Positions 1 through 41,800 of a stretch of DNA of 41,800 nt are shown here, piece by piece; positions within the stretch are counted from its first letter, which is position 1; every line of letters begins with the position of its first letter. The stretch is from Escherichia phage vB_EcoD_Teewinot. Position numbers and translations under genes: made by a program. The stretch lies in the sequence record NC_073053.1; one strand, 5' to 3'. A model generated the notes under the pieces. That model was not told the origin of the DNA, did not search any database, and saw only the letters and a program-made list of their open reading frames with translations.

Positions 1-31
1 CGGCAGCCAGTAATCCTCCCAGCCTGCCGAT

Positions 32-60
32 TTGGTGGGCTTTTTTGTGCCTGTTATAAT
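32..60 (+). promoter_or_regulatory. sigma70-like promoter upstream of the small terminase gene
   Basis: TTGGTG (32-37), 17-bp spacer, TATAAT (55-60), with TG at 52-53 (extended -10). The track ORF start at 32 is therefore probably an artefactual N-terminal extension. Confidence 0.4.
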
Positions 61-5250: not shown

Positions 5251-5311
5251 CATTAGTGTGTCCTCGTTGTTGGTGTGCAACCAATATATGCAACCAATAC
5301 GAGGATTGCAA
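5251..5311 (-). promoter_or_regulatory. leftward promoter-RBS-ATG cassette (duplicate of the cassette at 38308-38369)
   Basis: On the minus strand: -35 TTGCAA (5311-5306), 17-bp spacer, -10 TATATT (5288-5283), two ATTGGTTGCA copies, GAGGA RBS (5265-5261), ATG (5253-5251). The 28-nt stretch TATATTGGTTGCACACCAACAA(C)GAGGAC is shared with the promoter of the gene at 38367. Confidence 0.45.
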
Positions 5312-5401: not shown

Positions 5402-6106
5402 ATGAAACTTACTAAAGCAGAATATGACGCGTTGCCGGAAGGTATGAAGGCGCTTTTTGTTGCCGATGGCGACGGGTATAAATCAACTTTCATGACCGCA
5501 GAAGAAGTACAGGCGGAAATCAAGGGTCTGAAAGAAAACAACGCGAAGCTGGTGAGCGAGAAGAAAGCAGAAGCCGAACGCCGCGCCGAAGCTGAGCGCC
5601 TTGCGAAAGAGAAAGAGGAAGCCGCCGCGCGCAAAAATGGCGACCTCGAAGCGATCGATAAGTCCTGGAAGGATAAGTTTGCGAAACACGAAGCAGATAC
5701 ATCGGGAAAAATCGAAGCCTACCGCAAGCAGATCCACGACCTAACCATCGGCAGCGCTGCCAAAGACCTGGCATCGAAGCTATTCGGTAAGAATGCGGGC
5801 ATCATGCAACGCCACGTAATGGACCGCCTGACGCTGGAAGACGGCGAAGATGGCAGCTTGAAAGTGCGTGTCTTGCAGGATGGCAAACCGTCCGCGCTGA
5901 CTATGGAAGAGCTTGAAAAAGAGTTCCGTAATAACGCCGATTTTGCATCCGTCCTGGCTGGCACGCCAGCCGGTGGCGCGCCTAGCAAACCGACGCAGGT
6001 TGTCGAAGATGTGAAGTCGAAAATCACTATGGGCCACAGCTTCGGTATCACTGACCTTACGAAACAGGCAGGTGAAATCATCGCTAAGATGGGCGACGAC
6101 GAGTAA
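5402..6106 (+). CDS. scaffolding protein (putative)
   Basis: ATG 5402 preceded by AGGGGGA; 234 aa, charged and helical (KEKEEAAARK-type coiled coil), immediately upstream of the major capsid gene. The track ORF start at 5060 is an upstream extension through the intergenic region. Confidence 0.6.
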   Translation: MKLTKAEYDALPEGMKALFVADGDGYKSTFMTAEEVQAEIKGLKENNAKLVSEKKAEAERRAEAERLAKEKEEAAARKNGDLEAIDKSWKDKFAKHEADTSGKIEAYRKQIHDLTIGSAAKDLASKLFGKNAGIMQRHVMDRLTLEDGEDGSLKVRVLQDGKPSALTMEELEKEFRNNADFASVLAGTPAGGAPSKPTQVVEDVKSKITMGHSFGITDLTKQAGEIIAKMGDDE

Positions 6107-6110
6107 GCAG

Positions 6111-6136
6111 ATTGCCCGCGAAAGCGGGCAATTTTG
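6111..6136 (+). terminator. terminator/attenuator between scaffold and capsid genes
   Basis: ATTGCCCGC-gaaa-GCGGGCAAT followed by TTTT. Confidence 0.45.
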
Positions 6137-6203
6137 CGAGCGCGTAAATCTAAGGTAACATTAACGTCACTGGGCGAATGCTCACAACTCAAAGGATTTC
6201 GAT

Positions 6204-7304
6204 ATGACTTTAACAGTGTTCCAGCGTAAACTCGTTACCGCGGTTACGCAAATGATCCCCGACAACCTGAACGTTTTCAACGCCGCCGCCAATGGCGCTG
6301 TTGTTCTCGGTACTGGTGAAGTGCTGAAGGATGTTATTGAGAAAATGTCCGTAGGCTTGATCGCCAACCTCGTTACCGACCGTAACGCCTACGCCCCTGT
6401 CGGTACTCCGGCAACCGCTAAAGTGCTGGCGCGTATGCTGACCAACTCCGTTAACCTATCCGCGAAAGTGGGTCCGGTAGCGATCACTAAGGCTATGATG
6501 GCTAAGATCGAAACCAACGTTAACAGCGTTGCGGCTGAGATTGCGGCGCAGGCCACTCAAGCGATTATGCTGCACTACCTGAAAGCGGGTATCGGTGCGG
6601 GTAAAGCGGCGATCGAAAGCAACGAAGCGGCAAAATACACCCAACCGGCGCGCGTTGACGGCGTTGGCGGTCGTACCTTCCCGACCCTGGCAGACTTCCC
6701 GCTGGCGGCTTCTAAGTTCGGCGATCAGGCGTCTTTGATTAAGTCCTGGTTTATGGACGGCGTTACCTGGGCAAACTTCATCGCGTACCAGGCACTCCCT
6801 TCCGCTGAACAGGTATTCGCAATTGGCGATCTCCAGGTAATGGGTGATGGCCTGGGCCGTCGTTTCATTATCTCCGATGCCGCTGCCGATGCTATGGGCA
6901 CGGGTAACATGCTGGGTCTGGTCCCTGGCGCGGTTGCCGTTACCACCAACGGCCTCGATATGCTGGCGCAGGAGAAAGGCGGTAACGAGAACATCGAACG
7001 CTGGTGGCAGGGTGAGTTCGACTTCAACGTGGCTGTTAAAGGCTACCGTCTGAAGGCGTCCGCTCGTACCCCGATCGAAGGTGTGCGCTCGTTCAAACTG
7101 GACGATATTACCACTTCCGCTAACTGGGAATTGGATCAGGGCCAGGTAGACAACGCACCGGCAACCGTTCAGGATGTTGGCGCGGTGGGTGATGTCGATA
7201 CTAAAGGTCGTCGTAAGACCCAGGCCGCACAGGCAGTGCCTACCCGTCACATCAAGGAAACCGCTGGCGTACTGGTTACGCTGACGGCGACCACAGCGTC
7301 TTAA
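6204..7304 (+). CDS. major capsid protein
   Basis: 366 aa ORF after the scaffold gene with AAGGA RBS, followed by a strong terminator; position and size typical of an HK97-fold capsid protein. Confidence 0.8.
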   Translation: MTLTVFQRKLVTAVTQMIPDNLNVFNAAANGAVVLGTGEVLKDVIEKMSVGLIANLVTDRNAYAPVGTPATAKVLARMLTNSVNLSAKVGPVAITKAMMAKIETNVNSVAAEIAAQATQAIMLHYLKAGIGAGKAAIESNEAAKYTQPARVDGVGGRTFPTLADFPLAASKFGDQASLIKSWFMDGVTWANFIAYQALPSAEQVFAIGDLQVMGDGLGRRFIISDAAADAMGTGNMLGLVPGAVAVTTNGLDMLAQEKGGNENIERWWQGEFDFNVAVKGYRLKASARTPIEGVRSFKLDDITTSANWELDQGQVDNAPATVQDVGAVGDVDTKGRRKTQAAQAVPTRHIKETAGVLVTLTATTAS

Positions 7305-7349: not shown

Positions 7350-7363
7350 TAGGAGTGAATAAG

Positions 7364-7864
7364 ATGTATGGCGACCCGCAAACCTTTGTTGTTTATGCCG
7401 CTGCGCGAGGCGTTGAAATTACGCAGAGCGACGCAACGCGACACCTTACCATTGTTAATGACTTCCTTAACGGCATCGACTGGATCGGCGAACAAGCGGA
7501 CCCGACCGGAATTGACGCATGGCCCCGCGTCAACTACCCGTCAGACGGTAAGCCGGTGCAAAACACGCTTACTGAAGATTTGGCAGTAGTTCCCGCTGGG
7601 CAGATTGTAGACTTCGCGTCAATCCCTGTTGCCGTTGAGCAAGCCGTTTACCGGCTGGCTATGCTGGTGGCGGACGATGTTGATATTTCTCCGATCGGGG
7701 ACGGTAAGGAGACTATCCGCGAAACTGTAGGCCCGATCACGATGGAGTATGACCCCGCGACGATTGGTAGCGGGGTGTCGTTCCCGTGGTGGGATGGCTT
7801 GTTAGGCCACTGGGTTGATTCAGGCGGCAACGCCGCAGGCAATTTCGACGTATTCAGGGGGTAA
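7364..7864 (+). CDS. hypothetical head/connector protein
   Basis: ATG 7364 preceded by AGGAG (7351-7355); 166 aa; lies between capsid and tail genes. Confidence 0.5.
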   Translation: MYGDPQTFVVYAAARGVEITQSDATRHLTIVNDFLNGIDWIGEQADPTGIDAWPRVNYPSDGKPVQNTLTEDLAVVPAGQIVDFASIPVAVEQAVYRLAMLVADDVDISPIGDGKETIRETVGPITMEYDPATIGSGVSFPWWDGLLGHWVDSGGNAAGNFDVFRG

Positions 7865-7865
7865 T

Positions 7866-8084
7866 ATGAATCCTGCATTACTCGCGGCTATTATCGCCGC
7901 AAATACTAAACGCCGACAGGAACCGGAACCACCGGTACCAGCGCCAGAACCGGAACCACCGGTACCAGCGCCAGAACCGGAACCACCGGTACCAGCGCCA
8001 GAACCGGAACCACCGGTACCAGCGCCAGAACCGGAACCACCGGAACCAGCGCCAGAACCGGAACCACCGGTACAGGAGGGCTAA
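7866..8084 (+). CDS. small proline/glutamate repeat protein
   Basis: ATG 7866 preceded by AGGGGG; 72 aa, N-terminal hydrophobic segment followed by about five copies of PEPEPPVPA encoded by a 27-bp tandem DNA repeat. Confidence 0.5.
   Translation: MNPALLAAIIAANTKRRQEPEPPVPAPEPEPPVPAPEPEPPVPAPEPEPPVPAPEPEPPEPAPEPEPPVQEG
7920..8076 (+). repeat. 27-bp tandem repeat (about 5.8 copies) inside a coding region
   Basis: Unit GAACCGGAACCACCGGTACCAGCGCCA repeated head-to-tail from 7920; four exact copies, a fifth with one substitution, and a partial sixth. Confidence 0.85.
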
Positions 8085-8088
8085 GAAG

Positions 8089-8442
8089 ATGGCGGGCTTT
8101 AATTACGCAGGATTAAAGCGGAAAGTGAATCCGCTGATTAAAAAATTCGGCATGACCGTTACGGTTACGCGTCCGGGGTCGGTTGACCGTGTAGACGGCG
8201 AAGAAGTGGTCATCCCACCGACCTCGTTTGACGTCATCGGTCTTCGCGAGGAGTACAAGCCGAGCGAGATCGACGGAACGCGTATCGTTGCCGGTGATGT
8301 GAAGTTTTTATGTCGGGCGGTTGAGCAATTGCGGGTGGGCGACCTGGTTAACCTGAACGGTGCTGACTACCGTGTCGTCAATCCTAACCCACTGCAACCG
8401 GCTGGCACTACCATGCTGTTTCAACTACAGCTAAGGGGCTAA
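8089..8442 (+). CDS. hypothetical head-tail connector protein
   Basis: 117 aa ORF with AAGAAG upstream, in the connector region between head and tail genes. Confidence 0.45.
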   Translation: MAGFNYAGLKRKVNPLIKKFGMTVTVTRPGSVDRVDGEEVVIPPTSFDVIGLREEYKPSEIDGTRIVAGDVKFLCRAVEQLRVGDLVNLNGADYRVVNPNPLQPAGTTMLFQLQLRG

Positions 8443-10992: not shown

Positions 10993-11135
10993 TGAAGCGG
11001 GACAGGCGGGACGTCCCGTTTTGTCCCGCCTCTGTAAAACTGCATATCTACTCACTTCCACTGCATAAACTCAAAACGGGACAAGCGGGACGTCCCGCTT
11101 TGTCCCGCCCTGTAAATGTGCATACCTATGCAGTT
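10993..11135. repeat. pair of 30-bp GGGAC palindromes with TGCATA-containing spacers
   Basis: Two near-identical imperfect palindromes CGGGACAAGCGGGACGTCCCGCTTTGTCCCGCC around 11003-11040 and 11084-11120, each centred on GGGACGTCCC, separated by CTGTAAA(N)TGCATA-type repeats. Confidence 0.7.
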
Positions 11136-11139
11136 TTAT

Positions 11140-11313
11140 TGCATAAAGTAAGCGGGACAAAAAGCGGGACAAACAAGGGGCGGGACAAAGCGGGACAGCA
11201 CCCCGTCCCCGCCAGTGCTGCCGCGGTTTTCAGCCGATCGGGACAGCGGGACAGCACCCCAGTCTTTCAGACTAGACGGGGGTCAATGGCCCCCCTCGTC
11301 TGAGACTGAATAA
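11140..11313. repeat. 174-bp GCGGGACA-array element, copy A
   Basis: Four tandem GCGGGACA units spaced about one helical turn apart, a variable centre, two more GGGACAG units, then a long imperfect hairpin (AGACGGGGG...CCCCCCTCGTCT). Near-identical copy at 37996-38169. Confidence 0.8.
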
Positions 11314-23496: not shown

Positions 23497-23518
23497 TGCA
23501 ACCAACCTATTGGTTGCA
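23497..23518. promoter_or_regulatory. perfect inverted repeat of the ATTGGTTGCA motif (operator-like)
   Basis: TGCAACCAA-ccta-TTGGTTGCA; the TAG stop of the HAD gene lies in the 4-bp spacer. Confidence 0.5.
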
Positions 23519-23977
23519 AGTAAATTTTGCAACATTTATTGCGTAAATTTTCGGTACCAGATCGCTGCACGCCCGACGAATTGCCGCGATGTTATTCTCG
23601 CAATCTTCAATGATGACCAGTTCCGACACGTCTGCATAGCAGACCATTTTGAATACAGCGCACGCCTTAAACTCCGGCGGCGGGGTGTCGTCCAGCATGT
23701 GGCGCATAAACAACCGGCCTACGGGGAATACTTCCAATTGCTCGACGGTAGTCTCCCAGCATTCTCGCTGCCGGTTTGTCAGATACGCGATCTCGAAGCC
23801 TTGCTCTTTGTACATGCGCAACAGCGGCAGCATATCCATGTTCAGGTCTTCGCGTACATGCGCTTTGTGCCACTTTGCCCAAAAGGTTGATTTCGTTTTT
23901 ATCCCCGGCACCAGGTCGGCACGCGCATCGCTTGAACCGTTAATAACGCCATCCAGATCGCAAATCAGTAATTTCAT
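23507..23977 (-). CDS. HAD-superfamily phosphatase (putative nucleotidase)
   Basis: 156 aa beginning MKLLICDLDGVI, the DxDG(T/V) nucleophile motif of HAD hydrolases. Confidence 0.6.
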   Translation of the reverse strand: MKLLICDLDGVINGSSDARADLVPGIKTKSTFWAKWHKAHVREDLNMDMLPLLRMYKEQGFEIAYLTNRQRECWETTVEQLEVFPVGRLFMRHMLDDTPPPEFKACAVFKMVCYADVSELVIIEDCENNIAAIRRACSDLVPKIYAINVAKFTCNQ

Positions 23978-24198: not shown

Positions 24199-24664
24199 GG
24201 AGTTCTCCTTCGCTCATTATTTCAATTTGTGCGCTGCCGATGGGTGGCGCTTCGTCAAAGATTATCAATTGCTGGCACTTGTTATTGCGAGGCCCGACTT
24301 CGCCGGTGACGGCGTGAATGAATCTAATCCGCCAGTCCAGAAGAATTATCAGGTTTGCAGTCTTCCTGGCCAGCTTCGCCCACTTCGTCGACGTGTCCTG
24401 ATTCAGTAGCATGACAGTCCGGCGTCCGTGCGCTGCACACTCGACCCACGGCAGCGGATCGGAATACGGCGGATTGCACCACTTCCACCCTTTCAACTCT
24501 GACCAGTCCACATCAAGCGCGCTGTGCTCTGCCGTGAAGTAACGCGGTAGCAGATGGTTGGCGTAGCTTGCCGCCATATCGTAACGGAATCGGAACTTAC
24601 GGCGCAGCGGTTTAAATAAAGCTGGCGGCGTGCGCCAGCTATCTTTCTGCTCACTCTTCTGCAT
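24179..24664 (-). CDS. DNA N6-adenine methyltransferase (phage Dam-type)
   Basis: 161 aa with DSWRTPP near the N-terminus and WCNPPYS (NPPY catalytic motif). Confidence 0.7.
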   Translation of the reverse strand: MQKSEQKDSWRTPPALFKPLRRKFRFRYDMAASYANHLLPRYFTAEHSALDVDWSELKGWKWCNPPYSDPLPWVECAAHGRRTVMLLNQDTSTKWAKLARKTANLIILLDWRIRFIHAVTGEVGPRNNKCQQLIIFDEAPPIGSAQIEIMSEGELLEYLNR

Positions 24665-25094
24665 AGTCTGGATCTATCGCATACAGGGCGGTTTTCTTGC
24701 TGCTGGATAGCACGCGTTGGACTCTGGACATCTCCTCCTTACTGAGCTGTCGGCTATCGGAATAGTAGCTGCCGTTTGCACGCCACGCTATACGCACCAG
24801 TCCTTTCAGCGGTATCGAAGACTTGCGACCTTTGGGGCGCACGTACGCCTCGGCCCGTTTGCAATGCTCGCGCAAACCTTCTGCTGTGAGTCGATTTAGT
24901 GCGACGGTGCGCTGCATAATACCCATCAACTCATACAGCAGATCGAAGCGCTCCTCTAATTCCTTGCGCGCCTTCTCCTCGCCTTCATAGCTCGCCAGAT
25001 AGGTGTCTGCCAGCGCGCTAACACGTTCGGCCTGTTCGCGGGCTTCGAGGCATTGCGCGGCCCAGTAATTTTTCTCTTCTTGTAAAATTTTCAT
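24651..25094 (-). CDS. hypothetical protein
   Basis: 147 aa, helical charged N-terminal half; GGAG RBS. Confidence 0.45.
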   Translation of the reverse strand: MKILQEEKNYWAAQCLEAREQAERVSALADTYLASYEGEEKARKELEERFDLLYELMGIMQRTVALNRLTAEGLREHCKRAEAYVRPKGRKSSIPLKGLVRIAWRANGSYYSDSRQLSKEEMSRVQRVLSSSKKTALYAIDPDYAEE

Positions 25095-35383: not shown

Positions 35384-37648
35384 ATGAACTTAATTAAATT
35401 CGCTGTAACACGACCCGCTAAAAAAGGCGAAAAAGCCAGGGCGGAAAACTTCCAGATGACCACCGATGAGTTTTTCGAATTTATTAATGATGCGAAAGAA
35501 ATATCCTCGGTGCATATCAACAAGACGGAAGATAAAGCGGAGTATGCGCGCCGCAAGCGTAAGGCTGATGGTATTGTGGCTTATACCCGTGACGGCTTAC
35601 GCCGCAAGACCAGTGCCGTGGACCGCTCGATCCTGTTCTTCGATATCGACCGTACCGACACCCGCACCCTGCGCCGCTGCCGTAAGGCTTTCATCGACGC
35701 GGGGCTGGAGCACGTATTTCACACCACAACCGGCGACCGCCACCCGCTGAAAGGCGGCACGCGTTGCGCTCGATTCCTGGTACTCACGGACAAGCCTGTA
35801 CCGGCTGAAGACCTGGGCCGTGTCCAGTATGCGCTATTACACCAACTGGGTCTGTCAGATGTGGACTTCGACGATTGCACGAAAGACACAAACCGCCTGA
35901 TGTACCTGCCACACCAGCAGTCTGTCGTTAAGTGCCACTACGGCAAGCGCGCCCGCGTCCGTCGTCTGCTCCGCCTGGCTGACAAGCTGGGAGTCGAGAA
36001 AGAGGAAGTACGCCGCGAACTGACCCAGGGCGATGATGGTGTGGCGGACGGTATTCTGGATTGGTGCTTCCAGGCGGGATTCGAACCGCTGTCGTCTGGT
36101 CGTGGTTATGAAGTGCCATGCCCGAACGAACACCTGCACAGCGGCGAAGGGTCCACCGCTATCTTGGTTAAGGATGGCGAGATCCGTTTCAAGTGTATGC
36201 ACACCGGCAACGAGTGTTGCTCGGAGCTGAACAGACACCAGCACCTGGCGCTACGTCTTATCGGGATCCCGGACCACCTGAACGTCGAGCCACACAACAT
36301 GTCCCGTAAGCAAATCGCCGCCATCCTCCCCGGACTGGACGACGAGGAAGTGGAATCGTGCTATGAACATATCGTTGATGCGGTCGGAGACGGCGACGAG
36401 TACGGCGTGTGTACTGATGCAGACCTGGACAACGAGCCGGTCGCACTGTTCAGTAAGCACGACCCGATCATCGAAGGCCTGGTCAACTTCAAATCGACCT
36501 GGTATCTCGCCGGTGAGTCGAACATCGGTAAATCGTTCTACGTGCTGGGGCAAATGGGTGCGGTTGCCGCGGGGATTCCGTTCGGCGGTGCGAAGGTCGT
36601 CCAGTCCCATTGCTTCTATTTCGACGCGGAAGGTGGCGAAGCCTCCAACCAGCGTAAGGAAGCATTGCAGATCAAATACGAGCACGACCTCGACAAGCTG
36701 CACATTATCGATCTGCAATCACGCGGCTGGGATATCACCAGCAAATCCGGCTTGCGTGAAGTTATCAGCTTCATCAACCGCACCGCTAACGGCGAACCGG
36801 TTGGCCTGGTGGCGTTCGACTCACTCAACCAGACGGTTGCGCTGCGGTCCGCCGATGCTAAACCGTTCGACGAGAACAACGCCAGCGATATGGGTGAAGT
36901 GGTCAAAGCGCTGAAGGCCATCGCGGAAAATACAGGCGGCAGTGCTGGCGTCATCCACCACCCGGCGAAGGGTGCAAACGGCAGCAGATCCCCCCGCGGG
37001 TCCGGCGCGCTGCATGGTGCTGTAGATTCCGCGTTCTTCCTGGAGCAACCGGACGACAATCAGCCCGGACAACTTAACCTGTATCACGAGAAGGCACGTA
37101 ACGGCATCAAGCAAGCGCCGCGCGGCTTCGTCCTGCTCAAGTGCAAGGTTAAGGTGGATCTCCGCAAGTCCGAGGCGTTCGAGGCGCACCAGTCCACCAG
37201 CACCGGGCCAGACTTCGGCGACGTGGTTGCCGGATGGGACGTCAAGCCGATTGCCTCCACGCCACGCGACGAGACTCTCTACCTCGTACCGGTCGCCCTG
37301 GCACCGTTCGCTATAGAACAGGCGAAGGCGGCTGGCAAGGCCGCGGTTAAGGACGAGAATGCCGCAGGACCGCGCAACGAAAAAGAGAAAGTGCTTTATG
37401 CGGCACTGGAAAAACTGATGGAAGATAACCCGGACCATACCGGATTCAGCAAATCGGCAATTGTCCGCCAGGCGGGATTGGCAAAAGGTGGAACATCTAC
37501 GAAGGCAATAGACGATATGGTTGAGCGCGGAGTGTTAGGTTTTTATACCGATCCGCACACCGGGGCCATCTATGGGTCGTCGAATATAGTCATCAAAACG
37601 AATATACCCATCACGCTTTCTGCGACCGATGACGACCTGAAAGATTAA
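35384..37648 (+). CDS. primase-helicase (AEP-type primase domain plus P-loop ATPase)
   Basis: 754 aa; N-terminal SILFFDIDRTD (hhhDhD primase-polymerase motif) and DDCTKDTNRLMYLP, a Cys/His zinc-binding segment, then Walker A GESNIGKS. Confidence 0.7.
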   Translation: MNLIKFAVTRPAKKGEKARAENFQMTTDEFFEFINDAKEISSVHINKTEDKAEYARRKRKADGIVAYTRDGLRRKTSAVDRSILFFDIDRTDTRTLRRCRKAFIDAGLEHVFHTTTGDRHPLKGGTRCARFLVLTDKPVPAEDLGRVQYALLHQLGLSDVDFDDCTKDTNRLMYLPHQQSVVKCHYGKRARVRRLLRLADKLGVEKEEVRRELTQGDDGVADGILDWCFQAGFEPLSSGRGYEVPCPNEHLHSGEGSTAILVKDGEIRFKCMHTGNECCSELNRHQHLALRLIGIPDHLNVEPHNMSRKQIAAILPGLDDEEVESCYEHIVDAVGDGDEYGVCTDADLDNEPVALFSKHDPIIEGLVNFKSTWYLAGESNIGKSFYVLGQMGAVAAGIPFGGAKVVQSHCFYFDAEGGEASNQRKEALQIKYEHDLDKLHIIDLQSRGWDITSKSGLREVISFINRTANGEPVGLVAFDSLNQTVALRSADAKPFDENNASDMGEVVKALKAIAENTGGSAGVIHHPAKGANGSRSPRGSGALHGAVDSAFFLEQPDDNQPGQLNLYHEKARNGIKQAPRGFVLLKCKVKVDLRKSEAFEAHQSTSTGPDFGDVVAGWDVKPIASTPRDETLYLVPVALAPFAIEQAKAAGKAAVKDENAAGPRNEKEKVLYAALEKLMEDNPDHTGFSKSAIVRQAGLAKGGTSTKAIDDMVERGVLGFYTDPHTGAIYGSSNIVIKTNIPITLSATDDDLKD

Positions 37649-37960
37649 ATTTTGCGCGCATTGGGAATTCCCATATCGCTAAAGATTAAATTTTGCGCGC
37701 ATTGGTTGCCATTTTGGGAATTCCCATATCGCTAAAGATTAAATTTTGCGCGCATTGGTTGCCGATATGGGAATTCCCATATCGCTAAAGATTAAATTTT
37801 GCGCGCATTGGTTGCCATTTTGGGAATTCCCATATCGCTAAAGATTAAATTTTGCGCGTATTGGTTGCCATTTTGGGAATTCCCATATCGCTAAAGATTA
37901 AATTTTGCGCGTATTGGTTGCCATTTTGGGTGTTTTTAACTGGTCGTATTGGTTGCCGTG
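37640..37960. repeat. iteron array, about six tandem 53-bp repeats (candidate origin of replication)
   Basis: Unit AAAGATTAAATTTTGCGCGCATTGGTTGCCATTTTGGGAATTCCCATATCGCT at 37681, 37734, 37787, 37840, a 41-bp first copy at 37640 (12-bp deletion) and a degenerate sixth; each has the palindrome TGGGAATTCCCA, extended to GATATGGGAATTCCCATATC in the third copy. Starts in the last codons of the primase-helicase gene. Confidence 0.75.
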
Positions 37961-37995
37961 TAGGGTGATTATTATGAATAGTTATGCAATAAAAC

Positions 37996-38169
37996 TGCAT
38001 AAAGTAAGCGGGACAAAAAGCGGGACAAACAAGGGGCGGGACAAAGCGGGACAGCACCCCCGTCCCGCCCCGGATGGCGCGGCTTTCAGAGGAGCGGGAC
38101 AGCGGGACAGCACCCCAGTCTTTCAGACTAGACGGGGGTCAGTGGCCCCCCTCGTCTGAGACTGAATAA
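37996..38169. repeat. 174-bp GCGGGACA-array element, copy B
   Basis: Same length as copy A (11140-11313); identical over the first 60-odd bp and the last 70-odd bp except one A/G difference, with a diverged roughly 40-bp centre. Confidence 0.8.
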
Positions 38170-38307: not shown

Positions 38308-38336
38308 TTGCATTCGTGCCAGCACCCTGCTATATT
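38308..38336 (+). promoter_or_regulatory. sigma70-like promoter built from two ATTGGTTGCA copies
   Basis: TTGCAT (38308-38313, from motif copy 1), 17-bp spacer, TATATT (38331-38336), then motif copy 2 (38334-38343), GAGGA RBS and ATG 38367. Confidence 0.45.
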
Positions 38337-38366
38337 GGTTGCACACCAACAAGAGGACTGCACAAA

Positions 38367-39336: not shown

Positions 39337-39371
39337 GTCCCAGTGAGCTAAAACTTACTGGGACTTTTTTA
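39337..39371 (+). terminator. terminator abutting the holin start codon
   Basis: AGTCCCAGT-12 nt loop-ACTGGGACT followed by TTTTTT, then ATG 39371 immediately. Confidence 0.55.
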
Positions 39372-39661
39372 TGGATAAGCTAAACGAGTGGTTATTCGCC
39401 CTTGCGTGTCTTGCTGGTGGCTTCGTGGGCGCACGCATTCACGGCGAGGCAACGAAAGGGCCGTTGAACTTCGTTTTATATGTCGTAGTTGGCTTCCTGT
39501 GCGCCATATTTGGTGCGCCAGCCATTGCCGAGTGGTCTGGTTTGTCTGGCGAGCGCACTGTCGCCGGTTTGGGCTTCGTAACTGCAATCTTCTGGATGCC
39601 AATAGCCGCCCGGATCAGGGAGACTATTGAGTCGTTCCGACTTCCGGGGGGCGCAAAATGA
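39371..39661 (+). CDS. holin (putative, three TM helices)
   Basis: 96 aa with three hydrophobic helices (WLFALACLAGGFVGA; LNFVLYVVVGFLCAIFGAPAI; VAGLGFVTAIFWMPIAA) and a charged C-terminus; two genes upstream of the endolysin. Confidence 0.55.
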   Translation: MDKLNEWLFALACLAGGFVGARIHGEATKGPLNFVLYVVVGFLCAIFGAPAIAEWSGLSGERTVAGLGFVTAIFWMPIAARIRETIESFRLPGGAK

Positions 39662-39903
39662 TTATCTCCGTCCTGTTGTTTGTTATCATAGGGGCTTCGT
39701 CCCTGTTTAACGTGTATGCGCCGTCCGTCCAGGATGGCATTTTAGGCCGGGTGTTATATCTGCTAACGGCGATGATCTGCGTTATCGGATTGTTGCAAAC
39801 AGGAGACGTATCTGACACCACCTGGACCGCGTTAATCTGGTTGTTTGCATTGCGCACGCTGCGTAATGCTGTTTTGAATGGGGTAAAACATGCGATTCAG
39901 TGA
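39658..39903 (+). CDS. second holin-like membrane protein (holin/antiholin partner?)
   Basis: 81 aa with two to three TM helices, GGGGGG RBS, overlapping start/stop codons with its neighbours. Confidence 0.5.
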   Translation: MIISVLLFVIIGASSLFNVYAPSVQDGILGRVLYLLTAMICVIGLLQTGDVSDTTWTALIWLFALRTLRNAVLNGVKHAIQ

Positions 39904-40381
39904 CAACGGTCTACGATTTACGGCAGCATGGGAGACTTTCAGCCCAGTGCCGTATTTCGCGACTAAGAAAGAGCAGGCCCGCGGCCTGTACACCTGGGGT
40001 TATGGTCATACCGGCACTAACCCGCCTCGAAGCATTACCCGCGCGGAAGCGCTGGAGCTACTCAAGCGCGATGTGGCGTATGCTGAGGACCGGGTGAACA
40101 AATACGCACATCCGAGCATTAACCAGGCGCAATTCGACGCGCTGGTGGACCTGGTGATCAATGCTGGTCCCGGTCCGATCGTACCGGACGACGTAGCCGG
40201 TGACTTCGATGATGCGGTGCGACTGGGTGACTGGGCGAAGGTCCGTGCTACTCTGCCGCAGTTCCGCAAGCAAGGTGGGGAGGTGCTTAAGGGTCTGGTC
40301 CGTCGAGCAATCGGCAGGCAAGCGCTATTCGATGGAAAGCAGTGGGACGTTGCCGAGAAAATCGGTCGTAACGCAGCATAA
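39890..40381 (+). CDS. endolysin, GH24 lysozyme type
   Basis: 163 aa; recalled P22-type lysozyme landmarks match: SDNGL near the N-terminus, catalytic E (WETF), YTWGYGHTG, INQAQFDALVDLVINAG, C-terminal RRAIGRQALF. Confidence 0.8.
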   Translation: MRFSDNGLRFTAAWETFSPVPYFATKKEQARGLYTWGYGHTGTNPPRSITRAEALELLKRDVAYAEDRVNKYAHPSINQAQFDALVDLVINAGPGPIVPDDVAGDFDDAVRLGDWAKVRATLPQFRKQGGEVLKGLVRRAIGRQALFDGKQWDVAEKIGRNAA

Positions 40382-40397
40382 TACGAGGTAACACAGT

Positions 40398-40565
40398 ATG
40401 CTAAAAAGTATTCTTGATCATAACGCCGACGCGCTCGCCGCGCTGGCTAAAACCGAAGACCCAGGCGCACGCGCCATTATCGCGGACACAATCAGTCATG
40501 CGGGTGTCTTTGATGCGAAGCTGCCGAGTCCGCCACCGCAGGAGGAATCTGGTCCTGCAGCGTAA
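40398..40565 (+). CDS. small hypothetical protein in the lysis cassette (absent from the ORF track)
   Basis: 55 aa (MLKSILDHNADALAALAKTEDPGARAIIADTISHAGVFDAKLPSPPPQEESGPAA) with GAGGTAA RBS, followed by a clean terminator. Confidence 0.45.
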   Translation: MLKSILDHNADALAALAKTEDPGARAIIADTISHAGVFDAKLPSPPPQEESGPAA

Positions 40566-40572
40566 ACAATCA

Positions 40573-40597
40573 AGCCCGGAATTATCCGGGCTTTTTA
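40573..40597 (+). terminator. rho-independent terminator
   Basis: AGCCCGGA-atta-TCCGGGCT followed by TTTTT. Confidence 0.65.
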
Positions 40598-40657
40598 TTG
40601 CTTGACTCGGGACCGTGGTATATTGTCCTCTGACCAATAACCAGGAAGTTAATTAAT

Positions 40658-41800
40658 ATGCACCCGCAAACTAAAATCACCGACGAGCAATTGATCGCCG
40701 AGTTGCAATCCGGCACTACCTCGAAAGATATTGCGAAGAAATACGGCCTTTCCCTCCGAAATGTCTACATGCGAAAAGCCCGCCTGTCGAAGAAAGGGAT
40801 TGGACACGGCAATGATGCCGTAATCCGTAAGCGCGTTGCCGATGGATTTGGCGTTAAGCGTGTATCCGCCCTGGTGCGCGGCAATGGCGAAGAGGTCATG
40901 TCGTGGGTTATCACTGAGCAGGACAAGGAGCGCCAGCTTGAGGCGATGCGCGCAGTGCTGGATGGCATGAACAGCGAAATCACACCGGCAGCACCAGTTA
41001 GCGCCCCGCCAGTACCGATCCAGGCGCTCGACTTGCTCAACCTGTACACCGTGTCAGACTTCCACCTGGGCATGTTGGCATGGGGCGAGGAGACTGGCGA
41101 AGACTGGGATATGGCGATCGCCGAAGACCTGTTCTACCGCTGGTTTGTCGAAGCCTTCGCACGCGCCCCGGACGCAGGCACTGCCGTAATTAATATCCTC
41201 GGTGATATGGCCCACTTTGATAGCCTCGATGCTGTCACTCCGGCAAGTGGTCACATACTGGACGCCGACACCCGCTACCAGAAACTGGTCCGATACATGA
41301 TTCGCATGGTGCGCAACGTCGTCGAACTGGCGCTGCAAAAACACCACAAAGTCAAACTGCTAATCGTCCAGGGAAATCATGACGAGTCGGGTATGATTTG
41401 GCTGGCTGAGATGTTCAATACTCTGTACGAGAACGAGCCGCGCGTCGATGTGGATACGTCCCCGGACGTCTACAAAATGGTGCAGCACGGTAAGACCACG
41501 CTATTCTTCCACCACGGGCACAAAGCGCGATTCGATGCTATCGAGCAGGTTATGATTTCTAAATTCAGACAGGCTTTCGGATCCAGTGAGTACAGCTACG
41601 CGCACGTAGGCCACTTGCACCACCAGAAGATTGTAGAATCCCGCAACATGATTGTTGAACAGCACCGGACGCTCGCAGCGAAAGACGCCTACGCCAGTCG
41701 TGGCGGTTGGATGTCCGGTCGCAGCGCAAACGTCATTACCTACAGCGCCAACTACGGCGAAGTAGCGCGCTTAACCATTAGCCCGGAAATGTTGAAGTAA
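40658..41800 (+). CDS. SbcD/Mre11-like metallophosphoesterase nuclease with N-terminal HTH
   Basis: 380 aa; N-terminal HTH-like TTSKDIAKKYGLSLRNVYMRKARL; phosphoesterase motifs VSDFHLG, ILGDMAHFD, VQGNHDE, HHGH, GHLHH. Complete ORF ending at the window edge. Confidence 0.6.
   Translation: MHPQTKITDEQLIAELQSGTTSKDIAKKYGLSLRNVYMRKARLSKKGIGHGNDAVIRKRVADGFGVKRVSALVRGNGEEVMSWVITEQDKERQLEAMRAVLDGMNSEITPAAPVSAPPVPIQALDLLNLYTVSDFHLGMLAWGEETGEDWDMAIAEDLFYRWFVEAFARAPDAGTAVINILGDMAHFDSLDAVTPASGHILDADTRYQKLVRYMIRMVRNVVELALQKHHKVKLLIVQGNHDESGMIWLAEMFNTLYENEPRVDVDTSPDVYKMVQHGKTTLFFHHGHKARFDAIEQVMISKFRQAFGSSEYSYAHVGHLHHQKIVESRNMIVEQHRTLAAKDAYASRGGWMSGRSANVITYSANYGEVARLTISPEMLK

Follow-up and report, generated by a model that had tools for sequence, protein, structure and literature searches.

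The 3' end of the genome of Escherichia phage vB_EcoD_Teewinot (NC_073053.1) carries a gene in which a helix-turn-helix (HTH) segment precedes a metallophosphoesterase, which raises the question of what kind of phosphoesterase this is, whether it has an SbcC/Rad50 partner, and what it might do for the phage. The window, that is, the whole stretch of DNA analyzed here, is the circularly closed 41.8-kb genome of this Dhillonvirus, in which the end joins the start. The gene and its flanking signals are as follows:

40572..40598, + strand: intrinsic-terminator-like hairpin and T run, closing the lysis cassette upstream of the gene
40616..40624, + strand: extended -10-like element TGGTATATT, a candidate promoter of the gene's own, read by eye
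40643..40648, + strand: ribosome-binding site AGGAAG, 9 nt 5' of the ATG, read directly from the sequence
40658..41800, + strand: complete coding sequence, 380 aa plus stop, HTH-metallophosphoesterase of the PHROG 704/T1 gp16 family
21..47, + strand: terminator-like hairpin and T run, directly 3' of the gene after circular closure of the genome

The reading frame begins with ATG and ends with a TAA codon formed by the final three bases of the window. It is not a chance frame, as its product matches PHROG 704 over the full length (E=7e-161), with residues 5-380 aligned to positions 2-390 of the 390-position profile. Moreover, it shares 97% identity with a 510-member protein cluster, and the GC content of the gene is 55.0% versus 54.5% for the genome. 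In the upstream hairpin, AAGCCCGGAATTATCCGGGCTT, 6 of the 9 bp of the stem are G-C pairs, and TTTATTGCTT comes directly after it. The TGGTATATT element was not called by a consensus promoter scan and lacks a properly spaced -35 (TTGACT at 40602-40607 stands only 11 nt off). On the other side, the hairpin at 21..47 is followed by TGTTATAAT (52-60) and then by terS. With a terminator and a promoter-like element 5' and a second terminator 3', the gene is an insulated unit, predicted to be monocistronic. Rfam and tRNA scans of the window gave no matches.

Because the window closes circularly, the sequence beyond position 41800 is the terminator, followed by terS and terL. The earlier note, which described the protein as an SbcD/Mre11-type nuclease with an N-terminal HTH, had suggested that an SbcC-like partner, if any, would lie past this edge; it is not there. 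No SbcC/Rad50 gene was found across the closed junction, in related complete genomes, or among the large ORFs of the genome, where the eight of at least 450 aa are all accounted for (TerL, portal, tape measure, tail fiber J, helicase, PolA, phrog_69 exonuclease, and helicase-primase).

The catalytic part of the protein comprises the following elements:

41018..41797, + strand: calcineurin-like binuclear metallophosphoesterase domain, residues 121-380, ending with the catalytic core and without a capping domain
41054..41071, + strand: motif I, SDFHLG, residues 133-138; D134 and H136 invariant
41198..41221, + strand: motif II, LGDMAHFD, residues 181-188; G182, D183, and D188 invariant, H186 nearly invariant
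41213..41275, + strand: family-specific insertion after motif II, residues 186-206, consensus HxDxxxxVTPxSGHxLDADxR
41369..41386, + strand: motif III, QGNHDE, residues 238-243; N240 and H241 invariant
41507..41521, + strand: motif IV, FHHGH, residues 284-288; H286 invariant, H285, G287, and H288 nearly invariant
41609..41623, + strand: motif V, GHLHH, residues 318-322; G318 and H321 invariant
41657..41722, + strand: second highly conserved segment EQHRTLAAKDAYASRGGWMSGR, residues 334-355, aligned with WTLTAGDENDPRGFWM of T4 gp47

As seen, the five motifs of the calcineurin-like superfamily (DxH, GD, GNH[DE], H, GHxH) are present in order. Residues D134, H136, G182, D183, N240, H241, H286, G318, and H321 are invariant in 46/46 relatives with 31-47% identity, and the metal-ligand residues are invariant or nearly so also across an alignment of 99 relatives. 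The Pfam scores of the protein fall just below the gathering thresholds, with 20.7 bits for PF00149 (cut-off 21.5) and 22.8 bits for PF12850 (cut-off 27); 13 of the 46 members of the relatives' alignment match PF00149 at E<=0.01, and two further relatives score above its cut-off (25.1 bits). The AF2 model (pLDDT 81) matches the metallophosphoesterase fold with a Foldseek probability of 1.0. The insertion at residues 186-206 is among the most conserved segments, yet it is modeled with low confidence; it is absent from T4 gp47 and is probably a substrate loop.

Two further parts precede the catalytic domain:

40679..40795, + strand: three-helix HTH (AF2 helices), residues 8-46, probably of the LuxR/GerE or sigma-70-region-4 type
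40841..40975, + strand: connector, residues 62-106, in which a long beta-hairpin (64-73, 79-88) precedes a helix (90-105)

In the AF2 model, the HTH helices span residues 9-17/18, 22-29, and 33-45, with block-mean pLDDT values of 84-90. The Pfam HTH match of the protein itself is sub-threshold (GerE, E=0.019), with clear matches in relatives (Sigma70_r4_2, 1.5e-9; GerE, 2.4e-8), and the PHROG 704-family profile matches GerE, DesR, and NarL. A Foldseek search with residues 1-121 of the model retrieved NarL/LuxR-type DNA-binding domains (DosR, LiaR, VraR, EvgA) at probabilities of 0.8-0.94, but with E>0.1; the rmsd was 0.8-2.1 Å for the best-fitting and 4.6-8.2 Å for the others, and the matches of the isolated N-terminal region had E>0.04 throughout. 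An N-terminal extension of at least 100 aa before motif I is found in 141/146 cluster representatives, and the longer relatives carry one or two HTH domains only, with no informative extra domain. The N-terminal HTH is real, and it may bind DNA. The earlier observation of phosphoesterase motifs behind an N-terminal HTH-like segment was thereby borne out: positions 40658-41800 form a single, complete 380-aa ORF that carries the five motifs, and the segment is a three-helix HTH. An HTH on a general DNase is unusual. As for the connector, G77 and W83 are nearly invariant and no known domain was matched; it could serve in dimerization or as a DNA "wing." A PDB sequence search with the single protein returned only repeat-protein matches to the connector region, which we judged spurious.

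The structural and profile comparisons suggest that the catalytic domain is nearest, among detectable relatives, to the Mre11/SbcD/PolD-DP1 nuclease branch. In Foldseek against the PDB, Mre11 (4tug, 5dny, 3auz) and the proofreading exonuclease PolD DP1 take the leading places, with E-values from 1.4e-7 (Methanocaldococcus jannaschii Mre11, the best match) to 7e-7, and with the non-nuclease phosphodiesterases YfcE, GpdQ, and Rv0805 only about tenfold weaker (E=5e-7 to 6e-6). In a search of PDB sequences with the family profile, the sole metallophosphoesterase chains at E<10 were those of Thermotoga maritima SbcD/Mre11 and "Nuclease MPE." When the family was compared by hhalign with single sequences, T4 gp47 reached 79.8% (E=1.4e-5, 187 columns), in an alignment spanning motifs I to V plus the TLxAxD..RGxW segment, and the values for T5 A1, YfcE, CpdA, Escherichia coli SbcD, and lambda NinI were 17%, 4.3%, 2.8%, 2.5%, and 0.7%, respectively; the hhalign link to the SbcD side thus comes from one single-sequence template, gp47, with E. 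coli SbcD itself at 2.5%. The claim that the motifs are not those of a PPP-type Ser/Thr protein phosphatase holds: PPP enzymes are absent from the 50 best Foldseek matches, lambda NinI scores 0.7%, and the GDxVDRG and GNHE signatures are absent, motif II reading GDMAHFD and motif III GNHD. The assignment to an SbcD/Mre11-type nuclease stands in part. The nearest detectable relatives probably lie in that branch, but membership in the family proper does not follow, as the protein matches no SbcD/Mre11 model in phrog_100 (which both T4 gp47 and E. coli SbcD match), NCBIfam, or Pfam. The capping/SbcC-binding region is also missing: the protein ends at residue 380, 25 residues past the last gp47-aligned position, and only two closing beta-strands form its C-terminal end in the model. 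Since it has no SbcD model match, no such region, and no accompanying SbcC gene, the 380-aa protein is not a bona fide SbcD/Mre11.

Among known systems, T1 gp16 is the closest. It belongs to the same family, shares the three-part architecture (PHROG 704, E=7e-155, versus 7e-161 for the window protein), and likewise adjoins the lysis cassette with a terminator after the gene. Nothing essential differs, except that the T1 gene precedes the lysis genes and the window gene follows them; T1-like relatives are approximately 43 to 47% identical to the window protein. The name "DNA repair exonuclease," carried by T1 gp16 and PHROG 704, is a prediction. T4 gp47/SbcD and the archaeal and eukaryotic Mre11 proteins have the catalytic fold and the five motifs in common with the window protein, and in gp47 the similarity continues past motif V; however, the window protein adds the N-terminal HTH, the connector, and an insertion of about 20 residues after motif II, and it lacks the capping domain, the SbcC/Rad50-binding C terminus, and a partner ATPase gene. 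PolD DP1, a 3'-5' proofreading exonuclease, also carries a beta-rich module N-terminal to an Mre11-like core (Foldseek E=1.7e-7 to 8e-7), although sequence identity is 11 to 13% and the PolD large subunit is absent from the phage because the phage uses a family A polymerase.

A further point of comparison is T5 A1, a predicted metallophosphatase that is necessary and sufficient for host DNA degradation and has been likened to nucleases of double-strand-break repair and to the proofreading exonucleases of polymerases (bioRxiv 10.64898/2026.04.02.716235). Like the window protein, A1 (phrog_1745) is a stand-alone phage metallophosphoesterase without SbcC, in this case working alongside the DNA-binding protein A2, and both proteins have a similarly long spacing between motifs II and III and an "NHDxxxSxWL" stretch. 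In contrast, A1 has 556 aa, a different N terminus, and a separate family, and the phrog_1745 profile does not match the window protein. Placing A1 in the same family was rejected, as hhalign gave 17% with the single sequence and 37% with a 7-sequence profile over motifs II-III only, and A1 is kept as an analogy. The idea that A2 corresponds, as a separate protein, to the N-terminal region of the window protein was likewise discarded (hhalign 1.3%).

PHROG 704, the T1 gp16 family, is annotated "DNA repair exonuclease," includes Rhizobium phage 16-3 p044, and is found in 2005/50,697 phage records (approximately 4%). NCBI names its proteins "metallophosphoesterase" or "winged helix-turn-helix domain-containing protein," and some viral relatives are annotated "DNA polymerase II small subunit." It occurs in all 155 Dhillonvirus-like records: the gene region and terL each have 155 matching records, and the two counts agree for every organism name. 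In Drexlerviridae, an exonuclease-holin-endolysin-spanin module is present in 508/522 genomes (PMC13164509). The gene belongs to the core of both Drexlerviridae and the Dhillonvirus-like phages examined, and it is also present in Jersey-like phages, where it forms its own small unit between tail genes. It stands before the lysis genes in T1-like phages, and after them and before terS in the window. Elsewhere, it occupies the distal end of nin-like recombination/repair modules, adjoining Q, lysis genes, or PNK: in 25 of 79 IMG/VR loci, a gene for NinB, NinG, endonuclease VII, a RuvC-like resolvase, a RecA-dependent nuclease, or a 5'-3' exonuclease-like protein is found at most five genes upstream. 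A lysis function as the primary reading was set aside, since in this wider sample the neighbors are nin-type recombination genes, Q, or PNK, and the Jersey-like gene is a unit of its own. No experimental work on the PHROG 704 family was found in the literature on Dhillonvirus, Jerseyvirus, Drexlerviridae, host DNA degradation, escape mutants, or transcriptomes.

Its status as a core gene and its position at the distal end of nin-like modules, next to Q, lysis genes, or PNK, point to a role in phage DNA metabolism. On balance, we favor the reading that the three-part T1 gp16/PHROG 704 protein acts there as a stand-alone, HTH-tethered, metal-dependent DNA phosphodiesterase or nuclease. The HTH, possibly dimeric via the connector, would hold the enzyme on DNA, and a di-metal center would hydrolyze DNA phosphodiester bonds. 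This center would be built from D134, H136, D183, N240, H286/H288, H319, and H321, with H241 as the putative transition-state histidine. The enzyme would work alone, without an SbcC/Rad50 ATPase, and the conserved, family-specific loops at residues 186-206 and 334-355 probably shape the choice of substrate. One possible role is the breakdown of host DNA for nucleotides, as carried out by T5 A1, of an unrelated family, and by T4 gp46/47; another would be end processing in support of recombination-dependent replication. In T1, mutants impaired in the degradation of host DNA show better transduction.

A different, unlikely reading is that the protein heals or repairs nucleic acid ends (3'-phosphate, 2',3'-cyclic phosphate, or damaged termini) and does not degrade DNA processively. 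It would then pair with the polynucleotide kinase and ligase of the phage, for instance in mending DNA or tRNA cut by host defenses. The neighborhoods are consistent with this, with a PNK-like/HAD gene at most five genes downstream in 12/79 IMG/VR loci (immediately downstream in 10), a dNMP kinase within the same distance in 9/79, and the PNK-like/dNMP kinase arrangement again in Yersinia phage vB_YenM_39; likewise, in Drexlerviridae without the SH3 gene, the genes that most often come straight after the exonuclease are those for PNK and dNMP kinase (PMC13164509). A PNK (phrog_415) and a small "DNA ligase" (phrog_10530) are encoded in the window too; however, they lie approximately 17 kb away on the opposite strand. 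Weak, sub-threshold hits to the ligase-associated nuclease PdeM/"Nuclease MPE" fall short of significance (E=0.18 and E=1.5), and the best homology is to SbcD-type nucleases.

It is likewise unlikely that the protein is primarily a transcription regulator of the late/lysis genes or of its own promoter, with the phosphoesterase serving as an accessory module or sensor. The HTH resembles the sigma-r4/LuxR type that activators carry, and the gene is an insulated unit at an early/late boundary (before the lysis genes in T1-like phages and before terS in the window). The genome carries conserved arrays of GCGGGACA boxes at 10997-11253 and 38008-38109, which are candidate binding sites for such a regulator, and 53-bp repeats at 37608-37983; nevertheless, a link between the boxes and the gene's own promoter was rejected, as the CGGGAC promoter hexamer does not fit the 8-mer box. 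In RcSalem, the gene ends the late operon, after the lysis genes, and in the lambdoid contigs the role of late regulator is already filled, since a bona fide Q antiterminator (PF06530) is encoded immediately downstream in 12/79 IMG/VR loci. The same 12 loci weaken a late-regulator role read from the "Q position" in L005/L006. Moreover, none of the catalytic residues varies, and conservation is far higher in the catalytic domain than in the HTH (43-57% versus 20-23% identity), which suggests that the enzyme is the selected function.

Hydrolysis of a nucleotide second messenger or another small molecule, such as the anti-defense destruction of cyclic nucleotide signals, appears improbable. The structural matches to class III cNMP phosphodiesterases (Rv0805, GpdQ) and to YfcE are strong, as given above, and an Acb2/Tad1-like sponge gene lies nearby in one lambdoid context. 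However, variable anti-defense genes differ from this strictly core gene (155 matching records for the gene and 155 for terL, and 508/522 Drexlerviridae [PMC13164509]), PADLOC, a defense/anti-defense catalogue, gave no match, CpdA and YfcE are far behind gp47 in hhalign, and a fused DNA-binding domain would be of no obvious use to a small-molecule hydrolase. Finally, it is highly improbable that the protein is a true SbcD subunit working with SbcC recruited from the host, or a Ser/Thr phosphatase of the PPP type such as lambda NinI: motif I (SDFHLG) resembles the SDWHLG of E. coli SbcD, and NinI shares the superfamily and, in lambdoid genomes, the nin-region slot directly upstream of Q, but the capping and SbcC-binding region and a phrog_100 match are lacking, and NinI belongs to a different branch, the window protein being about 160 aa longer, with an extra HTH and no GDxVDRG/GNHE.

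Overall, the gene is ordinary and already catalogued, with a predicted name in databases and 97% identity to existing entries. It is a very common core phage gene that has been named "DNA repair exonuclease" purely by similarity, and "SbcD-like" as an annotation of the 380-aa protein should not imply an SbcCD complex. The absence of SbcC, the predicted DNA-binding domain, and the NinI/pre-Q slot in lambdoid phages make its function directly testable, and they raise the questions of whether T1-like phages use this protein as their nuclease for host-DNA degradation or end processing and what the HTH recognizes. More tentatively, PHROG 704 may be an SbcC-independent, HTH-guided branch of Mre11/SbcD enzymes that performs an essential step in thousands of siphophages, either destruction of the host chromosome or site-specific cutting of phage DNA. 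In the first case, one polypeptide would combine what T5 divides between A1 and its DNA-binding partner, the selective destruction of the host chromosome; in the second, it would cut or process phage DNA at specific sites, for which the GCGGGACA box arrays would be the obvious candidates. Either reading, if true, would represent a new targeting mode for Mre11-like enzymes.

The product of the gene under study gives a full-length match (E=7e-161) to PHROG 704 ("DNA repair exonuclease"), a family that also includes gp16 of phage T1 (ST16) and p044 of Rhizobium phage 16-3. The gene and its flanks carry the following features.

39371-40565: lysis cassette (holin-holin-endolysin-small ORF), upstream of the gene
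40572-40598 (+): terminator-like hairpin with T run, 5' of the gene, ending the lysis cassette
40616-40624: extended -10-like element TGGTATATT, read from the sequence, between terminator and ribosome-binding site
40643-40648 (+): ribosome-binding site AGGAAG, 5' of the ORF
40658-41800 (+): complete single ORF, 380 codons, with an ATG start and TAA as the last three window bases
21-47: terminator-like hairpin, 3' of the gene once the genome is closed
52-60: TGTTATAAT element, between the 21-47 hairpin and terS
131-682: terS, after TGTTATAAT
682-2067: terL, after terS

Many Dhillonvirus (HK578-like) coliphages share the gene region at 93-95% DNA identity. The records of phages welsh and Sponge open at other points, and in them a short intergenic stretch separates the gene from terS, with terL next. 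Since the welsh sequence directly past the stop codon is identical to window bases 1-60, the window is, by sequence, a closed phage genome whose end joins its start. The SbcC/Rad50-like partner that the earlier note placed, if it existed, past the window edge is therefore not there; the edge leads instead to the terminator-like hairpin, TGTTATAAT, terS, and terL, and no SbcC/Rad50-like gene was found 3' of the PHROG 704 gene or elsewhere in the whole genome. All eight ORFs of at least 450 aa are identified (TerL, portal, tape measure, central tail fibre, helicase, family A DNA polymerase, phrog_69 exonuclease, and helicase-primase). Given the terminator-like hairpins at 40572-40598 and 21-47, the gene reads as an insulated unit with terminators on both sides. 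We infer a candidate promoter at TGGTATATT; a consensus promoter scan did not call this element because a -35 at proper spacing is absent. The GC content of the gene (55.0%) matches that of the genome (54.5%). The same layout, a terminator hairpin followed by an extended -10-like TGGTATATT or TGTTATAAT that lacks a recognisable -35, is seen 5' of both the terS operon (1-130) and the PHROG 704 gene (40566-40657).

The encoded protein carries metallophosphoesterase motifs I to V in order, together with two family-specific segments.

Residues 133-138: motif I, SDFHLG
Residues 181-188: motif II, LGDMAHFD
Residues 186-206: family-specific segment 1, HxDxxxxVTPxSGHxLDADxR, an insertion relative to T4 gp47
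Residues 238-243: motif III, QGNHDE
Residues 284-288: motif IV, FHHGH
Residues 318-322: motif V, GHLHH
Residues 334-355: family-specific segment 2

Because D134, H136, G182, D183, D188, T194, N240, H241, H286, G318, and H321 are invariant among 46 cluster representatives only 31-47% identical to the window protein, the predicted metallophosphoesterase is almost certainly active. The protein scores just under the curated thresholds of Pfam Metallophos and Metallophos_2, and an NCBIfam search of it gave no significant match. Conservation is highest in the two family-specific segments, which show 61-87% identity with the window protein in two family alignments, and in the AlphaFold2 model (99 sequences in the alignment; mean pLDDT, 81) both have low confidence, as would be typical of substrate loops.

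Moderate evidence places the catalytic domain nearest to the nuclease branch. Foldseek against the PDB ranked M. jannaschii Mre11 first (1.4e-7) and the PolD DP1 proofreading exonuclease next, with YfcE, GpdQ, and Rv0805 within about one order of magnitude of the top match. The only metallophosphoesterases reached by the family profile among PDB sequences were T. maritima SbcD/Mre11 and "Nuclease MPE," with nonsignificant E-values. When the family alignment was compared with single sequences by hhalign, T4 gp47 gave 79.8% (E=1.4e-5) over 187 columns spanning motifs I to V and the TLxAxD..RGxW segment, followed by T5 A1 (17%), YfcE (4.3%), CpdA (2.8%), E. coli SbcD (2.5%), and lambda NinI (0.7%). 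The low NinI value, and the absence of PPP-type Ser/Thr phosphatases from the Foldseek top 50, bear out the view that the enzyme is not of the Ser/Thr-phosphatase type. Nevertheless, the protein falls outside the SbcD/Mre11 family. It has no match to phrog_100, the PHROG of gp47 and E. coli SbcD alike; it ends 25 residues past the last gp47-aligned position, and thus has no capping or SbcC-binding region; and it lacks a partner ATPase. Overall, what the earlier note observed is confirmed and its interpretation is partly supported: the HTH and a nuclease-type domain stand, whereas SbcD/Mre11 membership and the SbcC partner do not.

The N-terminal HTH appears real. Models of the full-length protein and of residues 1-121 agree on three helices (9-18, 22-29, and 33-45), then a disordered stretch, a long beta-hairpin (64-73, 79-88), and a helix at 90-105/107. 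The protein's own Pfam HTH score is subthreshold (GerE, 0.019), but matches are clear among the 46 relatives (Sigma70_r4_2 to 1.5e-9, GerE to 2.4e-8, also HTH_1 and HTH_8), with one or two HTH domains in longer relatives. The family profile matches the DNA-binding domains of GerE, DesR, and NarL, and Foldseek with the N-terminal model returned only DNA-binding HTH proteins, NarL/LuxR-type ones at a probability of 0.8-0.94 with E>0.04 for such a small domain. Of 146 representatives, 141 have an extension of at least 100 residues before motif I. Identity is 20-23% for the HTH and 43-57% for the enzyme, so that the HTH is by far the faster-evolving part.

The family comprises 4668 cluster representatives (50%-identity clusters; E<=1e-3) and is present in 2005 of 50,697 phage records, mostly phages of Escherichia, Klebsiella, Salmonella, and Vibrio, with others of Campylobacter and Rhodobacter. 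Searches with the gene region and with terL each gave 155 phage records, and the counts agreed for every organism name, which suggests a core gene of the genus Dhillonvirus. HNH homing endonuclease genes lie directly next to or within the homologous gene in several phages (T1, 6029-6511; a Vibrio phage, 6010-6519; Salmonella phage S100), and the homolog is split or truncated in the records of Jk06 (JK_62P-64P), phiJLA23, and KpV79. Dhillonviruses carry the gene between their lysis cassette and terS. In T1-like phages it is directly 5' of the lysis genes, in one Casjensviridae phage it comes after them and closes the late operon, and in one Jersey-like phage it is a small unit in opposite orientation between tail genes. 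Among 79 IMG/VR loci with relatives of 46-98% identity, 25 have a recombination/repair-type gene (NinB, NinG, endonuclease VII, RuvC-like resolvase, RecA-dependent nuclease, or 5'-3' exonuclease-like) within five genes upstream. The Q antiterminator (PF06530) is immediately downstream in 12, a PNK-like gene is within five genes downstream in 12 (immediately downstream in 10), and a dNMP kinase is within five genes downstream in 9. These neighbors indicate that in lambdoid genomes the gene takes the slot that belongs to NinI in lambda, at the distal end of the "nin" region with its recombination and repair genes. A lysis role was rejected as the primary reading, since nin-region gene order best accounts for the frequent nearness to lysis genes.

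Several repeats were observed elsewhere in the genome. Six 53-bp tandem repeats (37608-37983), each holding the palindrome TGGGAATTCCCA and AAGATTAAATTTTGCGCGC, directly follow the helicase-primase gene (35384..37648); they look like iterons and are a candidate replication origin. Two dense GCGGGACA box arrays, one upstream of the tape-measure gene (10997-11253) and one adjoining the 53-bp repeats (38008-38109), contain 21 of the genome's 34 CGGGAC hexamers in about 360 bp together, with perfect palindromes CGGGACGTCCCG at 11007-11018 and 11086-11097. Kept at the same place in welsh and Sponge, with CTGCATAAA motifs close by, they are probably binding sites for a phage DNA-binding protein. A duplication of ~195 bp (11119-11313 and 37975-38169; 89% identity, 26.9 kb apart) spans the distal part of both arrays, ends in a long imperfect hairpin (GACGGGGGTCA[A/G]TGGCCCCCCTCGTC), and matched no Rfam family. 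In the head-gene region, 27-bp (9-codon) tandem repeats GAACCGGAACCACCGGTACCAGCGCCA (7893-8100) lie between ORFs 7355..7864 and 8089..8442 and, if translated, would give a Pro/Glu-rich EPEPPVPAP repeat. The arms of a perfect 22-bp inverted repeat, TTGTTGGTGTGCAACCAATATA, lie 33 kb apart (5267-5288 and 38331-38352), with related TGCAACCAA motifs at 5276-5310 and 23497-23531.

The protein would most likely be a two-metal DNA phosphodiesterase or nuclease that is tethered by its HTH and acts alone in phage DNA metabolism, with T4 gp46/47 and T5 A1 as precedents. T5 A1 is a predicted metallophosphatase said to resemble nucleases of double-strand-break repair and proofreading exonucleases of polymerases; it is both required and sufficient for the degradation of host DNA (bioRxiv 10.64898/2026.04.02.716235). 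However, A1 belongs to a separate family (hhalign, 17-37%, motifs II-III only), and its DNA-binding partner A2 is unrelated to the N-terminus of the window protein. As the most likely role we infer either breakdown of host DNA or processing of ends for recombination-dependent replication. Next in likelihood is an end-healing enzyme that acts together with PNK and ligase; the genome also encodes the following proteins, which could partner it in end repair or self-protection.

23510-23977 (-): PNK (phrog_415)
24654-25094 (-): "DNA ligase" (phrog_10530), very small at 147 aa
24182-24664 (-): DNA methyltransferase (phrog_111)

A transcription regulator, which the HTH could suggest, is less likely, as Q already lies downstream in lambdoid contigs and the enzyme is conserved more strongly than the HTH. 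A small-molecule phosphodiesterase ranks lower still: the gene is core, PADLOC gave no match, and similarity to CpdA and YfcE is low. Last come a genuine SbcD and a PPP phosphatase, the protein falling outside both families by their defining tests.

The protein is already catalogued, with 97% identical proteins, a named PHROG, and T1 gp16, and its novelty is low; we found no experimental work on any PHROG 704 family member in the literature. Interest remains in the fact that a core gene of so many phages bears a name resting on prediction, for which this analysis supplies concrete hypotheses.
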